Source of the DNA: Marsupella aquatica
Taxonomy: Eukaryota; Plantae; Marchantiophyta
Direction: 5' to 3'
DNA: 64,000 nucleotides
Assembly: GCA_973895155.1 (NCBI GenBank)
Contig: OZ316897.1
Location: forward strand, 21,861,455-21,925,454
The notes under the pieces were generated by a model. The model did no database searches. It had not been told where the DNA came from and saw only the letters and a program-made list of their open reading frames with translations. Below, one piece after another: positions 4,801 to 64,000 of this stretch. The position numbers and the translations under genes are program-made. Position 1 is the stretch's first letter; each line of letters starts with the position of its first letter.

Positions 4801-5322
4801 GACCCTTTTTCCATAGGGAGCAGTTGGAGAAGCACCAATTAGAAGAAGCGGTGGCTTTAGAAAGAAGCAAGAAGGACGAGGTCATCCAGCGGCTTAGGAG
4901 GATGGAAGCCGAGATTGAAGATCTAAGGGCGGCCAAGAAAGCCCAAGATGAACTGCGGATTAAGCGGCATGAGCTGAACATCATGCAGGGGCAGTTGGAC
5001 ACCGCGCAGGCTGATAATCAGATTATCAAGGATAAACTGGCTTAGACCCAGGGAGAATTCCTTGGAATGGGAACATTTTTATAATTTTTGGTTCCCCCGC
5101 GAAAAGCCCCACGGGGAGGGCAAACAGACAGACCAGAAGGCCAGACCAAGCGACATAAAACATAGCCGAACACACAGCGCACAGGCACACATCACCAGCG
5201 CATATCCCACAACCCCCCGACCACCAAACAGTGGAAAAGGGAAAATCAATCACCAACACAAGCCCAAGCCCAACATAAGAGGGCATCCAACAGTCAGATC
5301 ATCCCGGAAGCCACGGTCCCCC

Positions 5323-9242: not shown

Positions 9243-9296
9243 CCTCCTACTATGCCAAAATTATATCCTGGCACAGCCACCCCCCATCCTTGAGTC

Positions 9297-11460: not shown

Positions 11461-14444
11461 TTAGGAATAAAATAGTCAAGGTCTTCTTGTACTCACCAGA
11501 AGATTCGACGATGGCTCGAAGTCCCGCTGCCACTCCACACCTCCTCGTCTCCAAGGCGCACCAAGGTCAGTCCTTCTTCTCACCGCTGTGTATGCCCGCC
11601 CATCCTTCTATTCGCAGGTTACGACGTTGAAACAGCTCTCAGCTCGTCCCTATTCTCTCTCCTCTCGCTGCCAAACCTTCATACAGAATCGTCTCACCGC
11701 TCCATCCCAGGTTATGAGAAACGGAGAGTGGCATCAAAAAGTCTCCACGCCATCAATGAATAAGCCACGATTGTCGAGGACGTCCCACTGTCCCGTGCTC
11801 CTTCGATCCTCTTCAGCTAAAAGGCCTTCCCTCACACCTCCGTAAGCGATTACCTCCCATCAAGTCCCCGTAGCTCCTCCCCTCTGGAAGAGACCATTCT
11901 TGGTCACATCAACCAGCCAGCACAGCCACATACGGAAAATTGATCCTCCCAATCCCATCTACCATCAATCCGCTTACGCTCCGGTCTCCTCAAAGCCCAT
12001 CCTGGCCCTTTCACTCCTCACTTTTCCACCACTCTCGGTTATAGCAGAGCACAGAATTGAATCCACCCAACACTCACCGATTTATCCACCAATGTGTAAC
12101 AGTTAAGACTCTCCTTTGCCATCGCTTGTATCTGAGGAAACATTCTCCATCGAGCAAACTGCCCCCGTACCCACCATGCCCGTGTCTGTGTACACACAGT
12201 GCGTCGCCCTTCTCCTACACCCTAAACCACCCTAAAACCTTCTAAAATCTCCCGAGCCGTCCAAAGCGTGGAGATGTCGAGAGTGAGCAAGAGTGGGTTC
12301 ATTTGCATGCGGTGTCTCCTGCGTATCAAAACCTTCCCCCTCGGGAAGCAACGCCCACACACGATCCAGGTGTGGATGATTCCAAGCTCTTGAGAGAGAG
12401 CACAAGTCAGCGCCTTACTTTCAGCCTCCTCCTTTACGTCTTGAGTTTCCTTCTCAAAGCGATCGGTCCTTCAACACGTGCAAAGTTGTTCCAGACCCAG
12501 GGAGAATTGGCCGACGCGATCAAAGAAAGGGAGAAGTGGAAGCGAGAGCTGAGGAATGCAAAGGAGGCCCACATAACAGCCAACAACCGGGCCATGGCGG
12601 AGACCCAAAGAAAGGAATGGGCGTTGAAGGGGGAGCTCGAGAAAATCCGCGGAGCCCTTGGGCAGAAGGAGGCCGAGTTAGGGAAATCCTATCAAGGGAT
12701 TATTGCACTACAGCAGGAGCTTGCGTCCCTGTTGGCCAGCTTCAAGGCCGACCTGCGGGAGAAGGACGCCCAGCTCGACCAGACTTATGCCAAGATGAAT
12801 AACATGGAGTCTGAGGTCGTAGCGGAGCTCGACAAGGAGCTAAGAGCAACCCAGGAGGAGAGGGCTACCACCAAGAAGGAATTGGAGGAAGCCCACAGGG
12901 AATTGGAGGAAGCCAAAAATGAGCTGCAGGAGGCACGTAAGGACCTGGATGAGACCCAGGAGGAGTTGGAGGAAATCATGAGGAAGATGGAGAACCTACA
13001 GCGGCGAGCCGACAACCAAACAGAGCGGCTGAAGAAACAAGCCGCAGTATTTAAATGCTTAGCTGCATCAGGTCCATCTCTCGTTGGGGCAAACCAGTTA
13101 CCAGGGGTGGTAATTGCCGAAGGACCAGCCGTGACACACGGCCCGGTGCCGGATGTTGGCGGCAAGGGGAAGGAACCGACTGTGGAGATAGTGAAGAAGA
13201 AGAAGCGGAAACCTTCGGGGTCCGGAGATTATTCGACCCCTCAAGACGTACTCAAACCGGCACCAACCTCCGGCATGAACACGACAATAGATCCCGCTAT
13301 CACCAAAGGTGGGGATGGCGCGGCCCAAGCCGAACTACTCAGTAATGAGGCCAGTATCCCAGATCCGCCTCTTGAGCAGGCCGGGGAGACCGTAGCCGAG
13401 GTTGAGGCCGTAGCCGAGAATGATTCCCGAGCCGATGCCGATGCCGATGGTGGACCCAGTCAGGCCGATGGAGAGTTGACTCAGTCAAAGGCAGGTAATC
13501 TGTCAGAGAATGAACCTACGGCAGTGGCTGAGGAGGAAGCGTTGGGGGCGTCCATTGAGGATCCACCACCGGTGTCGTGACGGTGCAAGGGCGCCGTTCC
13601 TTTTAGGAAGGGCGGACGTGGAGGTAGGAGGCGTGAGTGGGCAGGGCGGGCGCTGATCTCCAAGTTTAGGATTAGGATCAGGACCAGGAGCGGCCCTGAC
13701 ACTTAGCTTAGTGGGATTGCGGTTCCACTGGTAGGAGCAACACTTGTGCTCCTGCCTTGCTGTACATTGGTAGATCCGGGCAGTTAGATTACTGTTAGGT
13801 AGATTAGGCTTACGCTGCAAAGAATTAGGCGGATCCACTACCAGGATAAGTACCTGGGCAGCAGGGAGCTCAGGGCCTCTTCTTTAGCAAGTTTTTAGTT
13901 TGCACCAGCCGGGCTGGGATCAAGTAGTAAGAGAAGCTCTCGGTTAGTCATACCGTGACCTTGTGTATATTCATGTTTCCTCATGCCTAAGAGCTGAATA
14001 GAGTTGGCCTCACGGCTTAGTTCGCAGAGCTTGTGTATGAGATGTACTGTTTGTATGGCAAGTGCATGGTATGACTCAGTCAGAAGGAGTCATTTTGCTA
14101 TTTGTGTGTTGCATTAACTTGTGTGAAGAGTGCCCACATCAACCAGAAGGAAGGAAAGTAAGCAAGGGAGTGAGAGTTGGATGTGTCGAGCTGAGAGAGG
14201 TCTTAGCGGCTTAACCAAGCGTATTGGCCTCATTCACAATTGGGTGTACCTCGCAGGAACCACTTTCAGGACTCAAAAACATGCTTTTTTAGTGAAAAAT
14301 GACTTTTGTAACATGGAAAAAGCACCATCATGATTTTATCTCAAGACATTTAAGTCTAATTTTTTCACAAGACTATTTTACATGGTGTTACCTACCTCAC
14401 CATGTAGATAAATCAAGTTTTCAATTGTTTTAAGAGATCCTATT

Positions 14445-17400: not shown

Positions 17401-17609
17401 GTTTCCTGCCCCTCCTATAGTAACTTGCTTACCCCTAGATAACTTTGCATAACTAAATTCCCTCTTACCTCTACTAAGCTTCCCTTCTTACTTAAGTGCC
17501 CTAAACCTAGCTACTCTGATAGCACTAAAACTTTTTCCCTAACTATTTCCTCTTCTAAACGAAAGAATGTCATGTTTCTCTACACTAGCTGACACTGAGC
17601 CATCCCACA
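14445..17609 (-). repeat. 3' LTR of gypsy B (3165 bp)
   Basis: Matches 23773-26912 apart from a 25-bp extra repeat unit near 16610. Confidence 0.95.
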
Positions 17610-17624
17610 TAGCCCCCTACTTAA
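17610..17624 (-). promoter_or_regulatory. Polypurine tract of gypsy B
   Basis: Minus strand TTAAGTAGGGGGCTA immediately before the 3' LTR. Confidence 0.85.
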
Positions 17625-17649
17625 GTGTGCAGCGTCCCCGCAAACACAC

Positions 17650-23718: not shown

Positions 23719-23734
23719 AAACTGTAAAGAGTTG

Positions 23735-23752
23735 TCCCCGGCAGCGGCGCCA
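23735..23752 (-). promoter_or_regulatory. tRNA-Asp-type primer binding site of gypsy B
   Basis: Minus strand TGGCGCCGCTGCCGGGGA, matching the Athila-type Asp PBS consensus TGGCGCCGTTGCCGGGGA. Lies 20 nt from the LTR. Confidence 0.8.
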
Positions 23753-23772
23753 AAAACAAGGGTGGGACTCTA

Positions 23773-26700: not shown

Positions 26701-26912
26701 CTAGTTTCCTGCCCCTCCTATAGTAACTTGCTTACCCCTAGATAACTTTGCATAACTAAATTCCCTCTTACCTCTACTAAGCTTCCCTTCTTACTTAAGT
26801 GCCCTAAACCTAGCTACTCTGATAGCACTAAAACTTTTTCCCTAACTATTTCCTCTTCTAAACGAAAGAATGTCATGTTTCTCTACACTAGCTGACACTG
26901 AGCCATCCCACA
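23773..26912 (-). repeat. 5' LTR of gypsy B (3140 bp)
   Basis: TG...CA ends. Candidate TATA box TATATAAGG on the minus strand at 24608-24616. Confidence 0.95.
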
Positions 26913-27912
26913 CTATTATTGATGGCCCTAAATAAGCCAAAATTACTGATTATTTTTGTCCTGTACATAAAGGTTTAGTGTGTGTCAATATTTGAGTTTT
27001 GAAATATAAGATTATTCTATTAGTATGCATGCTTTGGTAAAATTTCATTGTCTAAAATGCATTTTTTAGAGTCCTTTTGAGTCCTGAAAGGATGTGACCC
27101 GTTGCGTGACAAGTCCTTTTATCAATCTTTGAAGGACATATAAGGAAAGCTTCAAAATCTCAAATGCTAGATAGTTTAATGAATGTTACCAACCTACATG
27201 ATGTTTATTAAGTATAGTACATCAAATTTTCTATATCATCTCATGACAGCCTACAAATGATATCCTAAAGCATAATAAACTATGGTCACTTTTGAGTGTG
27301 ACGTTCCTTTTGGGTCCTCCAATTGTGAATGAGGCCTATTGGGGATCATTCCGGCGGCGGAATCCAAACATACCTAACCAGAAGGAGAAGAAGACAAGGG
27401 AAGGCCTAGATTAGGCCGGCTACGTATCTCATGACCCGATGAAGGATCTGTCCAGTATATGTGTATAAAAGGCTAATAGTAATAGTAGAAGGAGGTTAGC
27501 AGCGTCCCATGCCGCTAAGCCACGGAAACGGCCTCGCCAAGCGCAAAACCTGCGAGAATCGGCTTGCGCTGGGGGGTTTGTTGGGTTTAGGGAGCCATGG
27601 GAAGCACCACAATAAACGTAAGGCACAATAGTGCGTTTAAATACATGAATGGAGTGGGGTTCAAGTGCGTGAGCAAAGGAAAACGACAAGTAAACTCTGA
27701 CCGGGAATATAAGTAGTTGAGTCAGTCTAAGTGGGCGCAGCCAGATAGGACAGAAGGAGGATCAGAGTCAAACGGGATCAACCAGACAGCCTACCGACCG
27801 GCAGCAAGCTCAAGGTAGTCAGTAAGATCCGATGCAGCCAGAGTGTAGAGTAACCACATCTGACAGCGAGGCATGGGAGCAGGCAAGAGACAAGACCGCA
27901 TGAATTTCAACA

Positions 27913-33780: not shown

Positions 33781-34112
33781 TGTGGAAGTTTTCAGATGAT
33801 TATGAAACTTGATAAACGTAAGGCACAATAGTGCGTTTAAATACATGAATGGAGTGGGGTCCAAGTGCGTGAGCAAAGGAAAACGACAAGTAAACTCTGA
33901 CCGGGAATATAAGTAGTTGAGTCAGTCTAAGTGGGCGCAGCCAGATAGGACAGAAGGAGGATCAGAGTCAAACGGGATCAACCAGACAGCCTACCGACCG
34001 GCAGCAAGCTCAAGGTAGTCAGTAAGATCCGATGCAGCCAGAGTGTAGAGTAACCACATCTGACAGCGAGGCATGGGAGCAGACAAGAGACAAGACCGCG
34101 TGAATTTCAACA
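33781..34112 (-). repeat. 5' LTR of copia A (332 bp)
   Basis: TG...CA ends, adjacent PBS and TSD. Confidence 0.94.
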
Positions 34113-48936: not shown

Positions 48937-49313
48937 ACCTTCCCGAGGTCCTTCTCATTATCATTTGCATTGTGCGATTCTGCCATGTCATCCCCTCCCT
49001 CCTCCTCCTCCTCCTCCCCGTCAGAAGCACCGTCCACTCCTACATCCCCCGCTTGCATTTCCGTTGCCGCATCGCGCCTGGGAAGGAGGACTTCCCTTAC
49101 AACACACAGGTCAAGGACGGAAAGTGAGTCCGCTATTGCAATCATTATGTCCCCTACCTCTGGGAAAGGAGGGCAGTTTGCAATTGTGGTAGGGAGTTCC
49201 CGTACTAAAGTATCTCCATTCTCCAAGGCTACAACCTCCCTCCCGCCTCTTCGAATTGGGAAGAACTTGTGTAGAATTCTTGACATAGGCCTACAGTTGT
49301 TGCCATGTGCGTA
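48937..49313 (-). pseudogene. Coding exon of unknown function, cut by the gypsy C insertion
   Basis: The frame of ORF 48768-49286 stays open up to the LTR junction. It has an acidic tract and a probable splice donor after DLGK. Confidence 0.45.
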
Positions 49314-52300
49314 TGTGATGCCTAGATAGGAATCACTCGGCCGGTTAAGTGGGTAAAGCAGGAAGGCACCCTAGGAACACCTTAGTATAGTGACAAAACA
49401 AGGAAAATATAAACAATTAGGGGCAACCATGGAACCCGGGCAGAGGCCGGAGGTAAGGCTGAGGGTGAAAACCCGATTAGGGTTAGGGCGCGTTAAGCGT
49501 CGGCGGCTAGGAAGGATCAACGGGAAGAACGACCGGCAGAGGAGAGGGGTAAGGAGCGCTTGCAGGAGACGGTGGCTCATTTGCGAGCACGAACTAGGCA
49601 GACGACTACAGGAGGCCAACTACTGTCAGCTGCTTAGGCAAGCACTCGGGGAGAGAGTAGATACCGACGATCGACCTAAGGAGGGTATGAGCAACATCAA
49701 TCAAGCGGCACATTTCTGGGGATGCCTGTTCGAACGGGCAACTGAGTACATCAAGACTTACGAGGACGAGGAGTCAGAAAGGGCAGCTCGAGAACGGCAG
49801 GAGCTCGCTCGATTGTGGGAGCTGCACAAGACGGCTTTCTTAGGAGGCGAACTCATCAAGGACGAGTTCCTGTGGACGCCTACTTCCAATCAACTCGACG
49901 ATCTTCTGTTTTGCAAAGACAGCATCGTCGGCATCCGAGAGGCCATCAAGAACTGCAACGACATACACTGGGAATTAAAGGGTAGCACGGAAAGGTGGAC
50001 CCAGGCAACGGTGCTAGGAGAAACCTCCACGGCAGCAGAGATGAAGAGGAAGGGAGCCGTCAACGATGAAGCCACCCCGGCAAAAAGAACGAGGTCGGCG
50101 GCACCAAAGAAGCCAGCCGAGCAGCAGAGCAGGAGGCAGGGAGAAGCCGAAGAGGAGGAGGTCGATCCCATCAAGGCCATTCCAACCAGGGATGACACCT
50201 GGAAGGGCTGGGCGGCAACCCTACCGGTGGAGGTGCAACTACATTTTGCACGGGAGGAGGATGCATGCTTTACGGCCATGCAGACCAAGAAGTACCAAGG
50301 CTTCATGGCCGGATCCGGCTTGGAGGCCTTTGTAAGATTACCATGGCTGAAGCCGGAGGTACCGGAGTCAGACCTATTAGAATTCGTGGGGTCATGGGAA
50401 CCCGAGACCAATTGCACGAGGATATATGGGAAGGATTTCTATCTTACTCCCAAGGTGATTGCCGAAGTGTTTGGCTTGCCGATGGGCAATAAGACCAAAG
50501 TTGATACCAGGAAGACCTTGCCTGACAAGGAGTTCCGGTCGTTCCCCGGGCCATCAACGAAGAATGGCTTCTTCCGGAACACCTGCACCAACCCGCACAT
50601 AGGAGAGATGATCGACTTCTTGCGGGTGACCATGCATTGTAACTTACCGAGGGCAGAGATCGGCAAGGCACAGGTCTATCTGGCAGAAAGGCCAGACCCA
50701 AGCCGGGACTACAACGGGTACCTCCTCAACCAATTGAAGAAGATCTTAAAGGAGGAGCAGCAGGTAATCGGCATGGGGAGCGTGTCGCGGCTTGGCTATC
50801 ACATGCCGCTGTTGTGCCGGTATGCCAGAGGTCAGACTTTTGCCCCGGTACTTCCCCTGCAGGTAAGGGCACCCGAGGAAGCTCCAACACCGAGGCCGTT
50901 GGCTGAGAAGCCTCAACCACCTGTTAGTCCTACGATCGAGCAGGTGTTTAGGCCCAGGAAGGAAGACTTGCCGATGCAGCAACCAGGCATGCAGAGTCTG
51001 CTGAAACTACTGGAGAAAGAAAAGAAATCGGCATCGGCAACAACAACGGCAACGGCAACAATGCAGGACACTACTACAGAGGTAGGCCTACACCGGCTCA
51101 CAAGAGAAAACCCCTTTGCTGGAGACAAGGAGAGAATCAGGCCGGAATCCAAGCCAGGTGTTCGAACGTACGTGGGAACCTCAAGCTCCGAATCTGAGGC
51201 AGAATTGCCTGAAGCTCCTACCGACGAAGAGGAGAGGGAGAAGCCGGACGTCCAAGAGGTAGAGGAGGCAGTGGAGGACTGCAGCCATGATAATTCCGGC
51301 TATGGGTCGGACCATCACGTTCCAGGAGTAAGGACCTGTGGCCGGTTTGTCCCCACACTTCCAAGGGTAGTGCGAGGGGACCCCAACCAGCAGAGTAGCC
51401 CTGAGTCTCCCCCACCAGATGTTGCTCCCCCGAGCTTCGACGGCATAAAACAGACGGTGCAGGAATTTCAAGAGCGAATCAAGCAGGAGGAAGAGGCCGC
51501 CCTGGCTAAGGAAAAGGATTTACCAGGAGGAGATTGGCCGGAGGACATCAGGCGGCTAGCCGAAAAAGGAAGCAAACCTCTAGCCACGATTGAAGAGATC
51601 CGCAGGACGGCTTGGGAGCAGAGGCCACGATGGGCGATGCCGATCACTTCTACTTACTCCACCTACGCTAAGAATAGAGCCATGGAGTATGGTGAGATGT
51701 GTGGGGAACTTGCGCTCGGCATCTTTGGAGAGGAGTTGGAGGTAGGACCCTTTTTCCATAGGGAGCAGTTGGAGAAGCACCAATTAGAAGAAGCGGTGGC
51801 TTTAGAGAGAAGCAAGAAGGACGAGGTCATTCGGCGGCTTAGGAGGATGGGAGCCGAGATTGAAGATCTAAGGGCGGCCAAGAAAGCCCAAGATGAACTG
51901 CGGATTAAACGACATGAGCTGAACATCATGCAGGGGCAGTTGGACGCCGCGCAGGCTGATAATCAGAATATCAAGGATAAACTGACTCAGACGCAGGAAG
52001 AGTTGGCTGACACGATCAAAGAGAGGGAAAAGTGGAAGCAAGAGCTGAAGAATACAGAGGAGGCCCACATAACAGCCAACAGCCAGGCCATGGCGGAGAC
52101 CCAAAGAAAGGAATGGGCGTTGAAAGGGGAGCTCGAGAAAATCCGCGGAGCCCTTGAGCAGAAGGAGGTCGAGTTAGGGAAATCCTATCAAGGGATTATG
52201 GCGCTGCAGCAGGAGCTTGCGTCCCTGACGGTCAGCTTCAAGGCCGACCTAAGGGAGAAGGACGAGATGCTCGAACAGACTTACGCCAAGATGAACCAGA

Positions 52301-53949
52301 TGGAGTCTGTCATCATTGCAGAGCTCGACAAGGAGCTAAGAGCAACCCAGGAGGAGAGGGCTACCTTGAAGAAGGAATTGGAGGAAGCCCACAGGGAGCA
52401 GGAGGAGGCCAAAAACGAGCTGGAGGGGGCACGTAAGGACCTGGATGAAACCCAAGAGGAGTTGGAGGAAATCACGAGGAAGATGGAGAACCTACAGCGG
52501 CGGGCCGACAACCAAACAGAGCGGCTGAAGAAACAAGTCGCAGTATTTAAATGCTTAGCTGCAGCAGGTCCATCTCCCGTTGGGACAAACCAGTTACCAG
52601 GGGTGGTAATTGCCGAAGGACAAGCCGCATCAACTGCACCAGTGCCGGAAGTAAGTGGGAAGGGGAAGGGACCAGCTGCCGAGCCACCAACGAAGAAGAA
52701 GCGGAAACCTCCAGGGTCAAGGAGTAATACGACTTCACAGGCCGTGGTGATCAAGGAGGTAGACCCAGCACCGACCCCAGACAGGGTCACGGCTAAGGAT
52801 CCAACTACCCTAGGGGAAGGGGAGGCCGAAGCCGTGGGAGTGGCTGAGGCCGAAGCCGTGGGTATTGCCGAGGCCGGTGTCGAGGCTGAAGCCGAAGGTG
52901 GACCCAGTCAGGCCGATGGAGAGTTGACTCGGTCAAGGGCAGGTAATCTGTTAGTAGGCGGGCCAACGGCAGTGGCTGAGGAGGAAGTGTTGGGGGCGTC
53001 CATTGAGGATCCACCACCGGTGTCGTGACGGTGCAAGGGCGCCGTTCCTTTTAGGGAGGGCGGACGTGGAGGGAGGAGGCGTGAGTGGGCAGGGCGGGCA
53101 CGGATCTCCACGTTTAGGATTAGGATCAGAACCAGGAGCGGCCCTGACACTTAGCTTAGTGGGATTGCGGTCCCACTGGTAGGAGCAACACTTGTGCTCC
53201 TGCCTTGCTGTACATAGGTAGATTCGGGCAAGTAGATTACTGTCAGGTAGATTAGGCTTACGATGCAAAGAATGGCGGATCCACTACCAGGATAAGTACC
53301 TGGGCAGCGGGGAGCTCAGGGCCTCTTCTTTAGCAAGTTTTTAGTTTGCACCAGCCGGGCTGGGATCAAGTAGTACGAGAAGCTCTCGGTTAGTCATACA
53401 GTGACCCTTGTGTATATTCATGTTTCCTCATGCCTAAGAGCTGAATAGAGTTGGCCTCACGGCTTAGTTCGCAGAACTTGTGTATGAGATGTACTGTTTG
53501 TATGGCAAGTGCATGGTATGACTCAGTCAGAATGAGTCATTTTGCTATTTGTGTGTCGCATTAACTTGTGTGAAGAGTGCCCACATCAACAGAAGGAAGG
53601 AAAGTAAGCAGGGGAGTGAGAGTTGGATGTGTCGAGCTGAGAGAGGTCTTAGCGGCTTAACCAAGCCTATTGGGGATCATTCCGGCGGCGGAATCCAAAC
53701 ATACCTAACAAGACGGAGGGGAAGACAGGGGAAGACAGGGGAAGGCCTATATTAGGCCGGCTACGTATCTCATGACCCGATGAAGGATCTGTCCAGTATA
53801 TGTGTGTAAAATGTTAATAGTAGTAGTAGAAGGTTAGCAGCGTCCCATGCCGCTAAGCCGCGGAAACGGCCTCGCCAAGCACGAAACCTGCGGGAATCGG
53901 CTTGAGCTGGGGGGTTTCTTGGGTTTAGGGAGCCATGGGACGCACCACA
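49314..53949 (+). repeat. 5' LTR of gypsy C (4636 bp)
   Basis: TGTGATG...CACCACA ends. Near-identical to 60174-64000. Same ends as the TSD-flanked solo LTR. Confidence 0.95.
49390..53028 (+). CDS. LTR-encoded ~1200-aa protein: basic N-terminus, plant-transposon-type globular domain, acidic/Pro-rich linker, long coiled coil, NLS-like KKKRK (first ATG 49429)
   Basis: Uninterrupted 3.6-kb ORF wholly inside the LTR. Frame and terminus are conserved in the diverged solo-LTR copy. Confidence 0.88.
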   Translation: MTKQGKYKQLGATMEPGQRPEVRLRVKTRLGLGRVKRRRLGRINGKNDRQRRGVRSACRRRWLICEHELGRRLQEANYCQLLRQALGERVDTDDRPKEGMSNINQAAHFWGCLFERATEYIKTYEDEESERAARERQELARLWELHKTAFLGGELIKDEFLWTPTSNQLDDLLFCKDSIVGIREAIKNCNDIHWELKGSTERWTQATVLGETSTAAEMKRKGAVNDEATPAKRTRSAAPKKPAEQQSRRQGEAEEEEVDPIKAIPTRDDTWKGWAATLPVEVQLHFAREEDACFTAMQTKKYQGFMAGSGLEAFVRLPWLKPEVPESDLLEFVGSWEPETNCTRIYGKDFYLTPKVIAEVFGLPMGNKTKVDTRKTLPDKEFRSFPGPSTKNGFFRNTCTNPHIGEMIDFLRVTMHCNLPRAEIGKAQVYLAERPDPSRDYNGYLLNQLKKILKEEQQVIGMGSVSRLGYHMPLLCRYARGQTFAPVLPLQVRAPEEAPTPRPLAEKPQPPVSPTIEQVFRPRKEDLPMQQPGMQSLLKLLEKEKKSASATTTATATMQDTTTEVGLHRLTRENPFAGDKERIRPESKPGVRTYVGTSSSESEAELPEAPTDEEEREKPDVQEVEEAVEDCSHDNSGYGSDHHVPGVRTCGRFVPTLPRVVRGDPNQQSSPESPPPDVAPPSFDGIKQTVQEFQERIKQEEEAALAKEKDLPGGDWPEDIRRLAEKGSKPLATIEEIRRTAWEQRPRWAMPITSTYSTYAKNRAMEYGEMCGELALGIFGEELEVGPFFHREQLEKHQLEEAVALERSKKDEVIRRLRRMGAEIEDLRAAKKAQDELRIKRHELNIMQGQLDAAQADNQNIKDKLTQTQEELADTIKEREKWKQELKNTEEAHITANSQAMAETQRKEWALKGELEKIRGALEQKEVELGKSYQGIMALQQELASLTVSFKADLREKDEMLEQTYAKMNQMESVIIAELDKELRATQEERATLKKELEEAHREQEEAKNELEGARKDLDETQEELEEITRKMENLQRRADNQTERLKKQVAVFKCLAAAGPSPVGTNQLPGVVIAEGQAASTAPVPEVSGKGKGPAAEPPTKKKRKPPGSRSNTTSQAVVIKEVDPAPTPDRVTAKDPTTLGEGEAEAVGVAEAEAVGIAEAGVEAEAEGGPSQADGELTRSRAGNLLVGGPTAVAEEEVLGASIEDPPPVS

Positions 53950-53953
53950 TTTT

Positions 53954-53972
53954 TGGCGCTAGATGGAGGGGG
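53954..53972 (+). promoter_or_regulatory. tRNA-Asn-type primer binding site of gypsy C
   Basis: TGGCGCTAGATGGAGGGGG, 4 nt after the LTR, versus the plant tRNA-Asn 3' complement TGGCGCTAGAAGGAGGGG. Confidence 0.8.
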
Positions 53973-54018
53973 CATTTCTTAAGCCGTGAGATATGAAGTT
54001 AGAACGGAAGCGTAGGTA

Positions 54019-57012
54019 ATGACTGACCTTACGCCGAGGGAAGAAAGAGTGATTCAACGGGAGAGAGCTGGACTGCAGCAGCTCGCCGGGTGGCATGATA
54101 CACAGCGACTGAGAGGGGCAGAAAGAGCTGGTAGCTCCGAAACTGGAAGTGGCATCGAAGAAGACATACCAGAAGAAGAGTCGGTAAGGAGAAGTGAGTC
54201 TCCAACCGACATGGGGGAACCAGAGGCACGGCCAGACGAAAGGCCAGGGACCAGATTGAGCCAGCGGTCGTGCATACATTACAAGGCATTTCATGGGAGA
54301 GGAGATGAGGATCCGGACGAATGGTTGGATGATTTCGAGGGAACCGCTGCAGCAAATGGAGAATCGGCCATCAAGATGCAGATTCTTCCTGGCCTGTTCA
54401 AGGGTGAGGCTAGGCCTTGGTACAGAGCATTAGATGTGGAAGATCAAGCCATCTGGGATATCTTCAAAACACTCTTTGTTAAGGAGTTTCGACCCATTGG
54501 AACTTCAGAACTAGCAGTGCTGAAGTTGGGACAACTTCGGTTCAAGGAGAACAAATCCTTCAGGAAGTTCTTGCAACGCTTTCAGAAACTGGTAAGACGT
54601 ACAAAGACCAATGCATCTGAAGGTATGCAACTTCAATGGTTAGTGAATGCTTTGCCACAGAAGATGAGTTTTGCAATTAGGAAGGAGAACCCGGAGACTT
54701 TAGCCGAAGCAATTAAGGATATTCAATTATACATTAATGCAGATATCACAAGCCGGAAGAAACAGCTTAAGTCTGAGAGTTCCTCATCAGAGGAGGGATC
54801 ACCCCATAAGAAAAAAGATAAGAAGAAGAAACATTCCAAGAAGTCTAGAAGTGATAAGTCAAGCTCGGATAGTGGGAGTAGCAAGAGTGAGTCATCTTCT
54901 AGTTCTGAAGAAGAAAAAACTAGGAAAAGGAAGGGCAGAAGGAGAGGGAAGACGAAAGTCAAGATGGAGGCTAAGCCACCAGATAACATCGTAGCCCTTA
55001 CCGAGCAACTTAAGGCTATCATTGCAGAGGTAAAACCAAAGAAGAAGGTAGTACAGGAGGATAGCTCTGTATGGTGTGCCTTATGTTATAAAACCGGACA
55101 CCATAAAGATGCGTGTCCTAAGCTTAATACTAATCATGTTCGGCATGTGGCCGAGATCAGACCATGTCAGGGAGAAGTAGAGTACTTTTTGGGAGATGCC
55201 GCTGATAGTGTTTTCGGCATCAGTGAGACTGGAGCACGAGACCTATCCAACAGACCTGCATCTCTGTGGTCAGGGTTAAGGAACAATCCAGGAGAGATGT
55301 ATCCTCGGATTATTCAGAACCCGTCAGTACCTCCTAGGCCGAATGTGCAAAGATTTGCGGCGTGCTATAATTGTGGTCAACCTGGCCATTTTGCTAGAGA
55401 ATGCCCGAATGCACGCAAACAGGGTGATGGACAACCAGCTCAGCTATGTATGGGATGCCGACAGGAAGGTCATATGCTAGGGCAATGTCCTACTTGGTTG
55501 GCAGGCCTGGCCGCAAATCATAAGCTTTTGCCGATCAAGATCTTACCGCCAGGTACTACCCCCGGAGGAGTTCAAATCAACCACATCGAACTAGGATGGC
55601 AAGAGGATGCCGAGGCAGAGTTTGTACCATCTGATGATGAGGCCGAAGCCCTATCAACCTTCTCAGAGGAGGATTTAGATCATGATTGCTACCGGGTCTC
55701 TACTCGATCTACCAGAAGGAAGGAAAGGTGGGATGGGCTGGCCAAAAATAAAGGGAAGGTTACGGAGGAAAGGATCGACTCTTCGTCAACATCAACAGAA
55801 GGAGAAGGGAGGGCTCCGGCAATACAGGTAAGCCATGAGCCCACCAGTGAAACCAATCCTTCACAAGATAGCGACTTCAATCGAGATCATCCTAAGTTGT
55901 TCTACCCCTCTGTTACGGCTAGTGTTAAGGAACAACTAAGAGAATTAGAAACCCTGGAGAATACCGAAGCCATTGCCAAGGATGTAAAACGAGCAAAAGC
56001 ATTGTTTGCTTCGGAAGACCCAACAGCTGTGGAGACTAGCGTGGCAAAACTGGCCGAATCCAAGACGGAAACACCACCAGAAGAGAAGCCGATTGTTCCC
56101 TATGACCTGGCTAAAGATGTACTAGAATCTAGAGTCTCGGCAACAGTAGGTCAACTATTGAAAAATAGCCCGTACTTCCGGAAGCAATTAAGGAAGGCTA
56201 TTCTCGGCAAGCCGAGATTACCCAAGGTAGCAACCAGATCCGACGTACTAATGATAGAAGAAGATCAAGGAGCCCCAGCATTACCATTAATGATTCAAGG
56301 AGAATTATTACTACGGGTACCCATCGATGGAGGATCAGGGGTATGTATTATGATTGATTCAACAGCAAAAGGGTGGGGTCTAACACCGGAGATGACTGGA
56401 AGAGTGTTGAACATGGCCAATGGATATCAGGTCATTCCGACGGGAGTGTTAACCGGCATCAAGACAGAGATAGGAGGTATCTTCTTTAGCATTAACTATG
56501 TAGTAATGAAGCCGGTAAATCCTACGTCCTTCCGGCTATTGATTGGTAGGCCATGGCTGTACCTAGCCGAGGTAATAGAAGATTGGGGTAAAAAGCAGTT
56601 CACTTTCGGGACCCCCTCTATCACGGTATCCTGGGACACTAAGGATGACCGTAGGAAAAGCATAAGGGAAGTAGATGGGTACGATAGTGGACTGGAGTCA
56701 GCCGATGAAGTACGTTGGTTAGAATGCCTCACTAACCTAACCGAAGAAGGTGTCTTTGGACCAGAGGTACCCCCCAGCGGATTATGGCAAGAACCAATGG
56801 AAGGTGACTTGGAAGAAGAAGACGAAGAGGTCGAGGACTGCTTTACAATAGAATCCACCTTTTTAGCTGCAATTCCGGAGGAAGTAAAGGATGTAGACCA
56901 ATTGGATAAAACGGCTAAGTGGGGAGCAGTAGCAGGGACAGTGGATTTTCTGCAGGCGTTGTGGCAGAGCCGACGGGGTCCACAACGCCATCGATCATCG
57001 GCAAGGAATTAA
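54019..57012 (+). CDS. Gag-protease of gypsy C
   Basis: Gag FHGRGDEDPDEWL. Three CCHC knuckles. PR IDGGSG...LLIGRPWL. Homologous to the N-half of the gypsy B polyprotein. Confidence 0.93.
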   Translation: MTDLTPREERVIQRERAGLQQLAGWHDTQRLRGAERAGSSETGSGIEEDIPEEESVRRSESPTDMGEPEARPDERPGTRLSQRSCIHYKAFHGRGDEDPDEWLDDFEGTAAANGESAIKMQILPGLFKGEARPWYRALDVEDQAIWDIFKTLFVKEFRPIGTSELAVLKLGQLRFKENKSFRKFLQRFQKLVRRTKTNASEGMQLQWLVNALPQKMSFAIRKENPETLAEAIKDIQLYINADITSRKKQLKSESSSSEEGSPHKKKDKKKKHSKKSRSDKSSSDSGSSKSESSSSSEEEKTRKRKGRRRGKTKVKMEAKPPDNIVALTEQLKAIIAEVKPKKKVVQEDSSVWCALCYKTGHHKDACPKLNTNHVRHVAEIRPCQGEVEYFLGDAADSVFGISETGARDLSNRPASLWSGLRNNPGEMYPRIIQNPSVPPRPNVQRFAACYNCGQPGHFARECPNARKQGDGQPAQLCMGCRQEGHMLGQCPTWLAGLAANHKLLPIKILPPGTTPGGVQINHIELGWQEDAEAEFVPSDDEAEALSTFSEEDLDHDCYRVSTRSTRRKERWDGLAKNKGKVTEERIDSSSTSTEGEGRAPAIQVSHEPTSETNPSQDSDFNRDHPKLFYPSVTASVKEQLRELETLENTEAIAKDVKRAKALFASEDPTAVETSVAKLAESKTETPPEEKPIVPYDLAKDVLESRVSATVGQLLKNSPYFRKQLRKAILGKPRLPKVATRSDVLMIEEDQGAPALPLMIQGELLLRVPIDGGSGVCIMIDSTAKGWGLTPEMTGRVLNMANGYQVIPTGVLTGIKTEIGGIFFSINYVVMKPVNPTSFRLLIGRPWLYLAEVIEDWGKKQFTFGTPSITVSWDTKDDRRKSIREVDGYDSGLESADEVRWLECLTNLTEEGVFGPEVPPSGLWQEPMEGDLEEEDEEVEDCFTIESTFLAAIPEEVKDVDQLDKTAKWGAVAGTVDFLQALWQSRRGPQRHRSSARN

Positions 57013-60000
57013 ATACCAAGGGATCGGCATACAAGCCGATTACGAGGGCAGAACAAATTGAGGCCCTATTAGAAGCCGAGAGAGCACAACGGCCTAACTC
57101 TCAGGAGCAAGAGGTGGATGAGATGGACAGACACGATCTAGAGCCAAGGCAGGAAGGGGAGCCGACCACTAATTCAAAACTGAATAGACCGGTAAGGGGA
57201 CAATCTATGGACACCAAGGAAGGGACCGACTCGGCTAGTCCAGCTGAGATCCCAGTTTATGGAGGTATGAGATTAGAGAGACTGGAAGCCGAACTGGACC
57301 CGAATTTGAAGAAGCAGATTAATATGATCCAAGCACGGCAATATCGGAAGCTTGACTTAGGAGAGGGAAGAGAACTGAACTTAGGGAGAAACCTAGCACC
57401 TGAGCTCGAGAAAGAGATCAGTGACTTATTGATTGAATTTCAGGATGTGTTTGCATGGAGTCACCAAGATCTAAAGGGAGTAGATCCAACACTAGGGGAA
57501 CATCGAATTGATCTCATGTTAGGAGCCAAATCATTTCGACAACCAATTCGAAGGATGAACCCGAAGTATTCCCTGCTGGTCAAAATAGAAATCGACAAAC
57601 TAGTGGAAGCTGGATTCATCACTCCAGTCCTGCATTCAGACTGGGTGTCTCCAATTGTGATAGTTCCCAAGAAAGCTGGACCCGATGGTAAACCCAAGAT
57701 CCGGGTTTGTCAGGATTACAGGAAGCTGAATGAAGCAACATTAAAAGACCATTTTCCTTTACCGTTTACTGATATGGTACTAGACATGGTAGCCAGTCAT
57801 GAACTATATTCATTCATGGATGGATACTCTGGTTATAACCAAATCAGGATTCGGCAGGAAGACCAAATCAAGACGGCCTTCATCACGGAATGGGGGATCT
57901 ATGTCTTCAATCGTATGCCGTTTGGACTCTGCAACGCACCAGCTATGTTCCAACGATTAATGGTGAACATTTTTCATGATTACTTGAGAAAGTTCATGGA
58001 AATCTTCATTGATGACTTTGCAGTATTCGGGAAGGCATCGAAACATGCTAAATACCTCAGGAAAACCTTCATGAGATGTAGAGAGGTGGGTCTCAAGTTA
58101 CACCCAGATAAATGTTTTTTTGCAGTAACCGAGGGGGTGCTACTAGGTCACAAGGTATCAAGGAAGGGCATTGAGATTGACAAAGGTAAGCTAGCAGTAT
58201 GGCTAGATATCATGCAACCTAAGAACATAAAGGATGTAAGATCCTTCTTGGGATGCATTGGTTACTATCGCCGGTTCATCAAGGATTTTGCCAAGCTGGC
58301 TTTACCATTAACCAATATGCTCAAGGCAGGAGCAGACTTCGAACCCACACCCGAACGAGTCACAGCGGTGGTAGAATTGAAGCAGATGTTAGTAGAGGCC
58401 CCAGTCATGATAGCACCGGACTGGAACAAAGATTTTCATGTTTTTGTAGATGTCTCGGGCTTCTGTATTGGCTCAGTACTAAGTCAGTTGGATGAGAAAG
58501 GAAGGGACCATCCCATATACTTCGCAAGCCGTCAGCTTGCCGATGCCGAACGGAACTACTCTACCACGGAAAGAGAAGCATTAGGAGTCATTTATTCTTG
58601 TAAAAAGTTTAGGCATTATTTACTAGGGTACAAGGTAATCTTTCATACTGATCATGAAAGTTTGAAGTACCTAGTCAATAAGCCGGACCTTACAGGCAGA
58701 GTAGCAAGATGGATTTTGCTATTACAGGAGTTTGACTATGAGCTGAGGATCAAGCCGGGAAAGTTACATGCCAATGCCGACTTCTTTTCAAGGATCACAG
58801 GTAAACCTGCCACGGATTGCATCGATGATCGATTCCCCGACGAGGAGCTATTCGTTGTGGAAATAGCTGGTACATGGTACCCTGAGATTTTACAATTTCT
58901 CAGCACTTCCAGATTACAGCCAGGATTAAGCCGAGAGCAAGCCGCAGTCTTTGTGCGGAAGGTCAGACAGTATCAGTGCATTAAAGGCATACTGCACAAG
59001 CATGGAATCAACGGCACGATTCAAAGGTGTTTGGAAAAGAGAGAGGTAAAACGAGTCCTACGGGCCATGCATGGAGAGGAGGCCGGAGGACATTTTGCCC
59101 CAGTAACCACGTCTAAGAAGATATTAAATGCCGGTTACTGGTGGCCCACCTTGCACAAAGATGTCTATCAGTTTATCAAACAATGCGATCCTTGTCAACG
59201 AGCGGGAGGACCAAGGGCGTCCACCAGGCATCCACTGCACCCTATTCTACCTCTGGCACCATTCGAGAAGTGGGGTATTGATTACATTGGACCTCTGAAA
59301 CCACTGACCCACCCTCGACGGAACAAGTACATAATCCTGGCTACGGATTATGCAACTAAATGGGTAGAGGCCAGACCAACAACGAAGGATGATGCAATTA
59401 CTACGGCTAGATTCATGTATGAGCAGATCTTCACCAGGTATGGAGCACCCCTAGAATTAGTTAGTGATAGAGGAACCCATTTTTTGAATGATATAATTAG
59501 TCGTTTAAATGAGCAGTATTTAGTTAAACATAGGCCTACTACTCCCTACCATCCAAAGGCAAACGGGTTGACAGAACGAGCAAACGGGATCATAGGAAAG
59601 ATATTGAACAAGACAGTAGCTCAGAACAAACTCGATTGGGATGATAAATTGTTTGCTGCTGTTTTTGCTTACAATCTTGCCTATAAATCCACTACCGGTC
59701 ATACACCCTTCTTCTTAACCTTTGGACAAGAAGCCCTGGTACCCATGCAACTTGAGATACCGACATTTCAAGTTACAATTGAGGAAAGAGCCTCAGCGGA
59801 GGAGAGCCTAAAGGAGCGAGAATATAGGTTAGAAGCTTTAGAGGAAGCGAGAATGATTTCAGCCGAGAGAGTAGAATATAGACAGAATATCATGAAGCAG
59901 CAGTATGATAAAAGGTTAAAAGTAGTTAGTATTCATAACGGTGATCTTGTGCTACTTTATGACAATAGGTATAGTAGGTTTCCAGGAAAGCTTTACACTC

Positions 60001-60185
60001 GCTGGTTAGGACCCTTTAGAGTAACCATGATGTTCCCCAATGGCTCCGTACAATTGGCCAACATTACGGGAGAGGTATATCCAGTTCGCATCCATTATGA
60101 CCGCCTCAAGAAATACTATATGGACGAAGATGAAGTTGTTCGCGAGGACGCTTCACAATTAAGTGGGGAGCTATGTGATGCCTAG
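56919..60185 (+). CDS. Pol (RT, RNase H, integrase) of gypsy C, in the -1 frame relative to gag-PR
   Basis: FMDGYSGY, FIDD, VDVSG, TDH, HHCC, WGIDY, SDRG, GPF. The stop codon falls inside the 3' LTR. Confidence 0.95.
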   Translation: MGSSSRDSGFSAGVVAEPTGSTTPSIIGKELNTKGSAYKPITRAEQIEALLEAERAQRPNSQEQEVDEMDRHDLEPRQEGEPTTNSKLNRPVRGQSMDTKEGTDSASPAEIPVYGGMRLERLEAELDPNLKKQINMIQARQYRKLDLGEGRELNLGRNLAPELEKEISDLLIEFQDVFAWSHQDLKGVDPTLGEHRIDLMLGAKSFRQPIRRMNPKYSLLVKIEIDKLVEAGFITPVLHSDWVSPIVIVPKKAGPDGKPKIRVCQDYRKLNEATLKDHFPLPFTDMVLDMVASHELYSFMDGYSGYNQIRIRQEDQIKTAFITEWGIYVFNRMPFGLCNAPAMFQRLMVNIFHDYLRKFMEIFIDDFAVFGKASKHAKYLRKTFMRCREVGLKLHPDKCFFAVTEGVLLGHKVSRKGIEIDKGKLAVWLDIMQPKNIKDVRSFLGCIGYYRRFIKDFAKLALPLTNMLKAGADFEPTPERVTAVVELKQMLVEAPVMIAPDWNKDFHVFVDVSGFCIGSVLSQLDEKGRDHPIYFASRQLADAERNYSTTEREALGVIYSCKKFRHYLLGYKVIFHTDHESLKYLVNKPDLTGRVARWILLLQEFDYELRIKPGKLHANADFFSRITGKPATDCIDDRFPDEELFVVEIAGTWYPEILQFLSTSRLQPGLSREQAAVFVRKVRQYQCIKGILHKHGINGTIQRCLEKREVKRVLRAMHGEEAGGHFAPVTTSKKILNAGYWWPTLHKDVYQFIKQCDPCQRAGGPRASTRHPLHPILPLAPFEKWGIDYIGPLKPLTHPRRNKYIILATDYATKWVEARPTTKDDAITTARFMYEQIFTRYGAPLELVSDRGTHFLNDIISRLNEQYLVKHRPTTPYHPKANGLTERANGIIGKILNKTVAQNKLDWDDKLFAAVFAYNLAYKSTTGHTPFFLTFGQEALVPMQLEIPTFQVTIEERASAEESLKEREYRLEALEEARMISAERVEYRQNIMKQQYDKRLKVVSIHNGDLVLLYDNRYSRFPGKLYTRWLGPFRVTMMFPNGSVQLANITGEVYPVRIHYDRLKKYYMDEDEVVREDASQLSGELCDA
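56943..57002 (+). promoter_or_regulatory. Putative -1 programmed ribosomal frameshift signal
   Basis: In-frame G_GAT_TTT, a 5-nt spacer and a perfect 10-bp stem GGCGTTGTGG/CCACAACGCC. Loop GCCGA can pair with downstream TCGGC. The pol ORF is in the -1 frame. Confidence 0.8.
60160..60173 (+). promoter_or_regulatory. Polypurine tract of gypsy C
   Basis: TAAGTGGGGAGCTA immediately before TGTGATG. Confidence 0.85.
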
Positions 60186-63100
60186 ACAGGAATCACTCGG
60201 CCGGTTAAGTGGGTAAAGCAGGAAGGCACCCTAGGAACACCTTAGTATAGTGACAAAACAAGGAAAATATAAACAATTAGGGGCAACCATGGAACCCGGG
60301 CAGAGGCCGGAGGTAAGGCTGAGGGTGAAAACCCGATTAGGGTTAGGGCGCGTTAAGCGTCGGCGGCTAGGAAGGATCAACGGGAAGAACGACCGGCAGA
60401 GGAGAGGGGTAAGGAGCGCTTGCAGGAGATGGTGGCTCATTTGCGAGCACGAACTAGGCAGACGACTACGGGAGGCCAACTACTGTCAGCTGCTTAGGCA
60501 AGCACTCGGGGAGAGAGTAGATACCGACGATCGACCTAAGGAGGGTATGAGCAACGTCAATCAAGCGGCACATTTCTGGGGATGCCTGTTCGAACGGGCA
60601 ACTGAGTACATCAAGACTTACGAGACGAGGAGTCAGAAAGGGCAGCTCGAGAACGGCAGGAGCTCGCTCGATTGTGGGAGCTGCACAAGACGGCTTTCTT
60701 AGGAGGCGAACTCATCAAGGACGAGTTCCTGTGGACGCCTACTTCCAATCAACTCGACGATCTTCTGTTTTGCAAAGACAGCGTCGTCGGCATCCGAGAG
60801 GCCATCAAGAACTGCAACGACATACACTGGGAATTAAAGGGTAGCACGGAAAGGTGGACCCAGGCAACGGTGCTAGGAGAAACCTCCACGGCAGCAGAGA
60901 TGAAGAGGAAGGGAGCCGTCAACGATGAAGCCACCCCGGCAAAAAGAACGAGGTCGGCGGCACCAAAGAAGCCAGCCGAGCAGCAGAGCAGGAGGCAGGG
61001 AGAAGCCGAAGAGGAGGAGGTCGATCCCATCAAGGCCATTCCAACCAGGGATGACACCTGGAAGGGCTGGGCGGCAACCCTACCGGTGGAGGTGCAACTA
61101 CATTTTGCACGGGAGGAGGATGCATGCTTTACGGCCATGCAGACCAAGAAGTACCAAGGCTTCATGGCCGGATCCGGCTTGGAGGCCTTTGTAAGATTAC
61201 CATGGCTGAAGCCGGAGGTACCGGAGTCAGACCTATTAGAATTCGTGGGGTCATGGGAACCCGAGACCAATTGCACGAGGATATATGGGAAGGATTTCTA
61301 TCTTACTCCCAAGGTGATTGCCGAAGTGTTTGGCTTGCCGATGGGCAATAAGACCAAAGTTGATACCAGGAAGACCTTGCCTGACAAGGAGTTCCGGTCG
61401 TTCCCCGGGCCATCAACGAAGAATGGCTTCTTCCGGAACACCTGCACCAACCCGCACATAGGAGAGATGATCGACTTCTTGCGGGTGACCATGCATTGTA
61501 ACTTACCGAGGGCAGAGATCGGCAAGGCACAGGTCTATCTGGCAGAAAGGCCAGACCCAAGCCGGGACTACAACGGGTACCTCCTCAACCAATTGAAGAA
61601 GATCTTAAAGGAGGAGCAGCAGGTAATCGGCATGGGGAGCGTGTCGCGGCTTGGCTATCACATGCCGCTGTTGTGCCGGTATGCCAGAGGTCAGACTTTT
61701 GCCCCGGTACTTCCCCTGCAGGTAAGGGCACCCGAGGAAGCTCCAACACCGAGGCCGTTGGCTGAGAAGCCTCAACCACCTGTTAGTCCTACGATCGAGC
61801 AGGTGTTTAGGCCCAGGAAGGAAGACTTGCCGATGCAGCAACCAGGCATGCAGAGTCTGCTGAAACTACTGGAGAAAGAAAAGAAATCGGCATCGGCAAC
61901 AACAACGGCAACGGCAACAATGCAGGACACTACTACAGAGGTAGGCCTACACCGGCTCACAAGAGAAAACCCCTTTGCTGGAGACAAGGAGAGAATCAGG
62001 CCGGAATCCAAGCCAGGTGTTCGAACGTACGTGGGAACCTCAAGCTCCGAATCTGAGGCAGAATTGCCTGAAGCTCCTACCGACGAAGAGGAGAGGGAGA
62101 AGCCGGACGTCCAAGAGGTAGAGGAGGCAGTGGAGGACTGCAGCCATGATAATTCCGGCTATGGGTCGGACCATCACGTTCCAGGAGTAAGGACCTGTGG
62201 CCGGTTTGTCCCCACACTTCCAAGGGTAGTGCGAGGGGACCCCAACCAGCAGAGTAGCCCTGAGTCTCCCCCACCAGATGTTGCTCCCCCGAGCTTCGAC
62301 GGCATAAAACAGACGGTGCAGGAATTTCAAGAGCGAATCAAGCAGGAGGAAGAGGCCGCCCTGGCTAAGGAAAAGGATTTACCAGGAGGAGATTGGCCGG
62401 AGGACATCAGGCGGCTAGCCGAAAAAGGAAGCAAACCTCTAGCCACGATTGAAGAGATCCGCAGGACGGCTTGGGAGCAGAGGCCACGATGGGCGATGCC
62501 GATCACTTCTACTTACTCCACCTACGCTAAGAATAGAGCCATGGAGTATGGTGAGATGTGTGGGGAACTTGCGCTCGGCATCTTTGGAGAGGAGTTGGAG
62601 GTAGGACCCTTTTTCCATAGGGAGCAGTTGGAGAAGCACCAATTAGAAGAAGCGGTGGCTTTAGAGAGAAGCAAGAAGGACGAGGTCATTCGGCGGCTTA
62701 GGAGGATGGGAGCCGAGATTGAAGATCTAAGGGCGGCCAAGAAAGCCCAAGATGAACTGCGGATTAAACGACATGAGCTGAACATCATGCAGGGGCAGTT
62801 GGACGCCGCGTAGGCTGATAATCAGAATATCAAGGATAAACTGACTCAGACGCAGGAAGAGTTGGCCGACACGATCAAAGAGAGGGAAAAGTGGAAGCAA
62901 GAGCTGAAGAATACAGAGGAGGCCCACATAACAGCCAACAGCCAGGCCATGGCGGAGACCCAAAGAAAGGAATGGGCGTTGAAAGGGGAGCTCGAGAAAA
63001 TCCGCGGAGCCCTTGAGCAGAAGGAGGTCGAGTTAGGGAAATCCTATCAAGGGATTATGGCGCTGCAGCAGGAGCTTGCGTCCCTGACGGTCAGCTTCAA

Positions 63101-64000
63101 GGCCGACCTAAGGGAGAAGGACGAGATGCTCGAACAGACTTACGCCAAGATGAACCAGATGGAGTCTGTCATCATTGCAGAGCTCGACAAGGAGCTAAGA
63201 GCAACCCAGGAGGAGAGGGCTACCTTGAAGAAGGAATTGGAGGAAGCCCACAGGGAGCAGGAGGAGGCCAAAAACGAGCTGGAGGGGGCACGTAAGGACC
63301 TGGATGAAACCCAAGAGGAGTTGGAGGAAATCACGAGGAAGATGGAGAACCTACAGCGGCGGGCCGACAACCAAACAGAGCGGCTGAAGAAACAAGTCGC
63401 AGTATTTAAATGCTTAGCTGCAGCAGGTCCATCTCCCGTTGGGACAAACCAGTTACCAGGGGTGGTAATTGCCGAAGGACAAGCCGCATCAACTGCACCA
63501 GTGCCGGAAGTAAGTGGGAAGGGGAAGGGACCAGCTGCCGAGCCACCAACGAAGAAGAAGCGGAAACCTCCAGGGTCAAGGAGTAATACGACTTCACAGG
63601 CCGTGGTGATCAAGGAGGTAGACCCAGCACCGACCCCAGACAGGGTCACGGCTAAGGATCCAACTACCCTAGGGGAAGGGGAGGCCGAAGCCGTGGGAGT
63701 GGCTGAGGCCGAAGCCGTGGGTATTGCCGAGGCCGGTGTCGAGGCTGAAGCCGAAGGTGGACCCAGTCAGGCCGATGGAGAGTTGACTCGGTCAAGGGCA
63801 GGTAATCTGTTAGTAGGCGGGCCAACGGCAGTGGCTGAGGAGGAAGTGTTGGGGGCGTCCATTGAGGATCCACCACCGGTGTCGTGACGGTGCAAGGGCG
63901 CCGTTCCTTTTAGGGAGGGCGGACGTGGAGGGAGGAGGCGTGAGTGGGCAGGGCGGGCACGGATCTCCACGTTTAGGATTAGGATCAGAACCAGGAGCGG
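60174..64000 (+). repeat. 3' LTR of gypsy C (truncated by the window end)
   Basis: Matches the 5' LTR, with about 8 differences seen by eye. Confidence 0.95.
60250..63887 (+). pseudogene. 3'-LTR copy of the LTR protein, with a 1-bp deletion near 60624 and CAG>TAG at 62811
   Basis: Direct comparison with 49390-53028. Confidence 0.88.

Follow-up and report, generated by a model that had tools for sequence, protein, structure and literature searches.

We analysed a 64,000-nucleotide stretch of the liverwort Marsupella aquatica (contig OZ316897.1; hereafter the window) and found that the long terminal repeat (LTR) of a Ty3/Gypsy retrotransposon is mostly protein-coding. The LTR carries a sense open reading frame (ORF) of 1,199 codons that is under purifying selection. 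We predict, with a probability of about 0.5, that the encoded protein is a nuclear DNA binder resembling the VANC proteins, which would recognise a word dispersed through its own family, WWGCCG(A), and counter the silencing of that family. We designated the full-length copy carrying this ORF as element A and a sister Gypsy element in the same window as element B. Element A is a young, high-copy, Athila-like Gypsy element without an additional RNase H. It is approximately 15.5 kb long and is organised as follows (PBS, primer binding site; PPT, polypurine tract; RT, reverse transcriptase).

49309..49313, plus strand: left target-site flank GCGTA; its right-hand counterpart lies beyond the window end
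49314..53949, plus strand: 5′ LTR, 4,636 bp, TG...CA
53954..53971, plus strand: PBS, starting 4 nt past the CA at 53949
54016..57012, plus strand: gag-protease ORF
56919..60185, plus strand: pol ORF; domain order RT, RNase H, integrase, as in Gypsy
60135..60173, plus strand: terminal-type flanking motif and PPT, overlapping the 3′ end of integrase
60174..64000, plus strand: 3′ LTR, clipped by the window end

An earlier note on this DNA proposed that the 4,636-bp LTR is real and occurs three times in the window, as the 5′ LTR, the 3′ LTR and a solo copy, and both statements are borne out. In addition to the TG/CA ends and the PBS, the TG of the 3′ LTR directly abuts the PPT. A self-comparison of the window gave 99.8% identity between 49314–53141 and 60174–64000, with 7 substitutions and one 1-bp deletion across 3,827 nt. 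Contigs from other sequencing runs share the borders: one begins at 49314 with a different flank, and three contig joints depart at 53949, the 3′ border of the LTR. The read depth in runs X1 and X2 was approximately 3–4 times higher over the LTR than over the internal region, but depth is not copy number and was not used. The solo copy and its paralogous site are located as follows (TSD, target-site duplication).

2365..5059, plus strand: solo LTR piece 1, with TSD ATAAA at 2360–2364 and a broken ORF copy
12493..14225, plus strand: solo LTR piece 2, with the C-terminus of the ORF and its stop at 13580
27337..27611, plus strand: solo LTR piece 3, with TSD ATAAA at 27612–27616
33781..34112, plus strand: empty paralog of the solo insertion site, uninterrupted, with a single ATAAA

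The solo LTR thus spans 2365–27611 in three pieces and is approximately 94% identical to the LTR of element A. The 5-bp TSD, ATAAA on both sides, was observed on this copy only. Because of this TSD and the empty paralogous site, both LTR borders are fixed independently of the full element. No terminal direct repeat was found within the LTR of element A, and therefore the 4.6-kb unit is not a tandem of short-LTR units; such an array is also excluded by the solo TSD and the empty site. Two insertions separate the solo pieces. A near-complete L1-type long interspersed nuclear element (LINE) at approximately 5060–12492 lies inside the ORF of the solo LTR, has a 16-bp TSD and encodes an ORF1 with DUF4283 and a zinc knuckle, an endonuclease and an RT. 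A terminal-inverted-repeat element at 14226–27336, with 18-bp inverted ends and TATT flanks, itself contains element B.

The ORF occupies 77.7% of the LTR by count, in agreement with the previously estimated 78%, and the following features lie within it (NLS, nuclear localisation signal).

49429 (ATG)..53028 (stop), plus strand: LTR-borne additional ORF, 1,199 codons, sense
50242..50841, plus strand: conserved globular domain of about 200 aa, belonging to a post-integrase extra-ORF family; its best predicted fold match is VANC21
51772..52554, plus strand: long predicted coiled coil, E/K/L-rich, with 21-nt repeat spacing and approximate borders
52684..52707, plus strand: NLS-like PPTKKKRK, with the KKKRK core kept in the solo copy

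Only the copy in the 5′ LTR is intact (one of three in the window). The 3′ LTR copy is broken by a 1-bp deletion at approximately 60624 and a stop at 62811, and the solo copy by a 4-bp insertion, three stops and the LINE insertion, so that the implied retention of a working frame in these two copies did not hold. In contrast, the rewritten low-complexity segments of the solo copy indeed stay in frame and end at the same IEDPPPVS followed by a stop codon. The selection on the LTR protein that had been suspected is also upheld. The dN/dS ratio between the solo and 5′ LTR copies was 0.37 (bootstrap 0.29–0.48; 1,190 codon pairs), with 0.21 in aa 261–500, which contain the conserved domain, and 0.63 in the low-complexity tail. 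Within 50150–50900, 29 of the 33 variants listed in run X1 at a share of at least 10% were synonymous, compared with an expected 31%, and none of those listed was an indel. The first 86 codons, with 3 synonymous and 9 non-synonymous changes, exhibited no clear selection, and therefore the working start may be a second in-frame ATG at 49687, after which 11 and 9 changes, respectively, were counted.

A profile of the conserved domain was run against all ORFs of at least 40 aa in 80 loci; the relatives considered here are L001, L003, L004, L005, L007 and L008. In L008, L004 and L007 it matched sense ORFs just past integrase (E 3e-7 to 1e-5), whereas the matches in L003 and L001 were weak. Profile–profile comparison supported the extra-ORF family (97.8%, E 1.2e-12). 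In a tree of the domain, the ORF of element A stands apart from those of L001, L003, L004 and L007, but grouping them together was not rejected (p-AU 0.40). Word-index homolog searches gave no match with the whole LTR ORF protein or, restricted to 1,379–3,935 aa, with alignment A1, and scans of viral contigs found no relatives of this protein. A Pfam-type scan matched coiled-coil families below threshold. For the conserved domain, VANC21 of the Arabidopsis VANDAL transposons was the best and the sole whole-domain match among predicted folds. The single-sequence structure model of aa 19–542 was unusable (pLDDT 40). Foldseek returned no match at E 0.001 or better against PDB and BFVD, and sequence-profile searches of PDB gave low-complexity or weak rows only. 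No sequence similarity of the protein to VANC was detected.

VANC proteins (DUF1985/DUF287) are described as binding short motifs in which their own family is enriched (PMC5735166), and therefore we looked for a family word in element A, using synonymous-codon shuffles (500 per gene) and an order-2 background. In the coding regions, TCGGCA occurs 25 times against 6.3 expected (z 8.4; maximum of the synonymous-shuffle null, 5.4). The core of the word is WWGCCG, often with A following.

49314..60173, both strands: dispersed WWGCCG(A), 5.6–9.1 WWGCCG per kb; 37 WWGCCGA sites

WWGCCG occurs 36, 19 and 17 times in the LTR ORF, gag and pol, respectively, versus 12.0, 6.1 and 6.3 expected (approximately threefold). 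In each gene the count exceeds the maximum of the 500 shuffles, the sites occupying either strand and every frame. Words discovered in one gene of element A rank near the top in its other genes. The density in the solo LTR is 8.3 per kb, whereas B, the LINE and the rest of the window have 0.16–0.96 per kb, so that the word is 6–50 times denser in element A than in neighbouring elements. Other members of the ORF family have other words: CCGGAA occurs 79 times in 7.5 kb of L001 (10.5 per kb) and 39 times in 5.2 kb of L003 (7.5 per kb), and AATTGG 25 times in pol, the longest ORF of L008. The family thus pairs one 200-aa domain with one candidate word, and the different words of L001, L003 and L008 would make it a specificity-swap system.

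The proposed nuclear, VANC-like binder draws on two independent hints, the predicted VANC21 fold match and the element-wide motif, and the anti-silencing guess of the earlier note stands to that extent. Like VANC21 and VANC6, the protein is an additional element-encoded product with a conserved domain and variable low-complexity regions (PMC5735166), and its own element is enriched in a family-specific short word. The systems differ in that VANC comes from a Mutator-like DNA transposon, whereas element A is a class I Gypsy element of a liverwort. In addition, the word in element A is 6–7 bp long and scattered through coding DNA, whereas VANDAL motifs lie in non-coding tandem repeats. In L007, short tandem clusters of an 8-nt unit containing AGCGCT occur at 636–706, 5059–5129, 6739–6785 and 7991–8021, an arrangement nearer to the VANDAL pattern. 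As to the mode of action, the 200-aa domain would bind the word, the coiled coil would oligomerise or bridge sites, and host demethylation or anti-silencing factors would then work along the element. If so, the VANC strategy would reach from Arabidopsis DNA transposons to early-land-plant retrotransposons. A broader reading, which we put forward tentatively and hold less probable than the prediction itself, is that Athila-type extra ORFs are a retrotransposon counterpart of VANC co-evolving with an element-wide word, and that the LTR, solo copies included, may be a self-contained trans-acting anti-silencing cassette with its own promoter that survives recombinational deletion by the host.

Several observations weigh against a close tie between the ORF and the word. 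B is enriched in a word of its own, ACCAGC, although it lacks the ORF; in L007 the ORF is present without a word, and the CpG observed/expected ratio is 0.08. Although this ratio is 0.61 in element A and 0.09 in B (0.09–0.13 internally, an extreme depletion), other elements in the window reach 0.54–0.85. When 7-mers were tested against an order-3 Markov background, the word was not significant in element A.

A somewhat less probable alternative is that the protein acts in the nucleus as an accessory factor of a different kind, for example in LTR activation, export of genomic RNA or integration tethering, and may bind the word without opposing methylation. The NLS-like motifs, the long coiled coil and the strong selection would suit such a factor, and CpG retention fails to track the presence of the ORF in L007. 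Grande GENE23 and the sunflower Athila ORF(+) are given as nuclear or predicted nuclear proteins of unknown function in PMC7264820 and PMC11728184, which likewise give the function of plant Athila/Tat extra ORFs as unknown. However, the sole whole-domain match among predicted folds is an anti-silencing DNA binder. Because the word is equally frequent on both strands in the ORF and gag, an RNA-level signal is also argued against.

It is unlikely that the word has nothing to do with the gene. In that case the word would be a site for a host factor or a family-specific by-product of mutation, and the ORF would be an ordinary Athila-type one brought into the LTR by a neutral PPT accident. The enriched word of B without an ORF and the ORF of L007 without a word favour such a separation. 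However, neighbouring elements of the same genome lack the word, which makes a common host site or a mutational bias across the genome improbable, and different ORF-bearing families have different words.

The position of the ORF in the LTR can be compared with that in the relatives. L007 is a collapsed whole element comprising pol, an internal PPT, the extra ORF, a terminal PPT, a 1-kb non-coding LTR, a PBS and gag. In both L007 and L008 the homologous ORF lies between the internal and terminal PPTs, and L005 has the same layout with a weak match only. The terminal PPT bears a conserved upstream motif, which is found after the ORF in L007, L008 and L005, before the ORF in A, L001 and L003, and directly after integrase in B. 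In L001 and L003 the ORF is probably also inside the LTR, on contigs too short to span it. Judged from this arrangement, the ancestral location of the ORF is internal, as in Athila, because the terminal PPT motif follows the ORF in L007, L008 and L005. Just past the stop codon in element A is a candidate remnant.

53038..53062, plus strand: PPT-like relic, where relatives have the terminal PPT

Among 919 windows, this relic ranks first with 3 of the 12 query motifs used, a moderate support. In the proposed origin, the ORF would first have been a usual 3′ extra ORF of the internal region, with a PPT on either side. The start of plus-strand synthesis would then have shifted to the upstream PPT, by which the ORF joined the U3 region, to be carried by both LTRs and to persist in solo LTRs. 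The earlier suggestion that an accessory ORF was absorbed by a PPT shift is thus consistent with the internal ORF of L007 and L008 and with the relic. However, the resemblance of the relic to the internal-type PPT is no weaker than that to the terminal type, and a simple upstream shift fails to explain why the ORF is preceded by a terminal-type motif and followed by one resembling the internal type. An exact 12-nt duplicate of the terminal PPT is present in the gag-pol linker (56916–56927) and may be a central PPT; elsewhere in the window this string occurs only once, as the PPT at 60160.

The TATA-like TATAAAA at approximately 27465, cited in the earlier note alongside a U3 position of the ORF, is solo-specific, and the 5′ LTR has TGTAAAA there. 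Conversely, the TATA-like site of the 5′ LTR at 53748 is not retained in the solo copy. Only one TATA-like site is common to both.

49408..49413, plus strand: candidate internal promoter, a TATA-like TATAAA close to the LTR start that the solo copy also has

The ORF would be expressed either on a spliced, subgenomic transcript of the 3′ LTR or from a promoter at the LTR 5′ end, at this TATA-like site. Athila ORF2 is described as expressed from a spliced subgenomic RNA (PMC7197481). The site at 49408 also suggests another layout, in which the genomic RNA starts at approximately 49408 and the ORF lies in R/U5 as an Ogre-like 5′ extra ORF enclosed by the LTR. The PBS of element A, which differs from those of its relatives, would agree with this. 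We consider it improbable, because the homologous ORFs of relatives sit 3′ of pol, the TATA-like site of L007 is 98 nt from its LTR end, and such a layout requires a minus-strand strong-stop DNA of 4.5 kb and translation of gag behind a 3.6-kb ORF. An env-like membrane protein for cell-to-cell movement, suggested by the origin 3′ of pol as in the Athila ‘env-like’ ORFs (PMC7264820), is most improbable, since the LTR ORF protein has no hydrophobic stretch of transmembrane strength, bears NLS-like motifs and has no match among the predicted viral structures of BFVD.

Element A has the gag, RT–RNase H–integrase order, LTRs, PBS and PPT of Ty3/Gypsy elements, with the TSD on the solo copy. Its pol ORF gave no match to an additional RNase H or a chromodomain, as in the Athila clade of the non-chromovirus OTA lineage, and the 5-bp TSD of the solo copy is also that of this clade. 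We take the PBS of A to be of the tRNA-Asn type and those of B, L001 and L007 to be of the tRNA-Asp type; the window has no tRNA gene. Athila PBS types are tRNA-Asp (72%) and tRNA-Asn (12%) (PMC6317226, supplement 3). An extra ORF between pol and the terminal PPT, characteristic of Athila, is present in L007 and L008, whereas in element A it lies past the PPT, inside the LTR. In a quick integrase tree without curated Athila, Tat or Phygy references, A falls into a group that also contains B, metagenome loci and a Riccia protein and that excludes the angiosperm matches. Phygy/Selgy elements are short, with a 4-bp TSD, a tRNA-Trp or -Ala PBS and no extra ORF; element A, with its 5-bp TSD, length and extra ORF, is not one of them.

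A comparison with Transposase_32 and PMD had been suggested. The LTR ORF protein has no Pfam match to Transposase_32 (PF20167) or ATHILA (PF03078); one of 13 aligned members (L008) matches, below the gathering cut-off. A possible, weak remote link to Transposase_32/ATHILA is transitive via L008 and is also indicated by Atlas leads (0.87–0.88), the direct profile alignment being weak, and no family member scanned matches PF10536 (PMD). PMD is described as a Gypsy-borne domain structurally similar to the VANC domain DUF1985 (bioRxiv 10.1101/2024.09.27.615353). The PMD system (Ogre extra ORF, MAIN/MAIL1) is Gypsy-borne like the domain of A, but Ogre has an additional RNase H and A has none. In the passages found, the literature offers an anti-silencing link of PMD/VANC to retrotransposons as speculation only.

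Like the Athila 3′ additional ORFs, the ORF of A is in sense orientation and 3′ of pol on the genomic RNA, with NLS-like motifs in its product and a 5-bp TSD on its element. Unlike them, it is found past the PPT now in use and forms part of both LTRs and of solo LTRs. The sunflower Athila ORF(+) has 487 aa (PMC11728184), compared with 1,199 aa for the ORF of A, whose protein, unlike the Athila ‘env-like’ ORFs, has no direct Pfam match and no transmembrane segment. An extra internal PPT is known in Athila4/Calypso (PMC2829016), and extra ORFs, as well as LTRs reaching about 5 kb, have been described for this element group (PMC6317226). The available part of PMC7264820 places extra ORFs solely in the internal region. 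Among the literature matches listed, which do not cover subscription works (Steinbauerova 2011, Wright and Voytas 2002), there was no report of an ORF inside a plant retrotransposon LTR. The family shows that a plant LTR can be mostly protein-coding, which alters what a solo LTR is, and surveys confined to internal regions would overlook such genes. Protein-coding frames inside the U3 of the LTR occur in the sag gene of mouse mammary tumour virus (MMTV) and in part of lentiviral nef. Both frames belong to mammalian retroviruses, encode unrelated proteins and are, like the LTRs around them, several times shorter.

The junction of protease and RT probably contains a further signal.

56943..56989, plus strand: probable site of −1 frameshifting, with the slippery sequence G GAT TTT (read in the gag frame) and a stem-loop (−23 kcal/mol)

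It falls between protease and RT of element A. At the same junction, L007 has an in-frame TAG followed by CAA TCA, presumably a readthrough-type context, and B has a single ORF, so that the lineage seems to recode this junction in differing ways.

Element B (14445–26912) has one intact gag-pol ORF of 2,039 codons, and its LTRs are, as noted earlier, long (3.1 kb) and non-coding. A domain profile scan and element comparison found no ORF remnants in its LTR. Between its 5′ LTR end and PBS is a 20-nt spacer (23753–23772, minus strand), compared with approximately 11 nt in L007 and 4 nt in A. The REXdb survey sought the PBS just 0–5 nt from the LTR end. Elsewhere in the window, a 596-codon open frame without a convincing Pfam family lies at 45954–47744 on the minus strand, and a 357-bp palindromic stretch between Copia fragments (30496–30852) resembles a miniature inverted-repeat transposable element.

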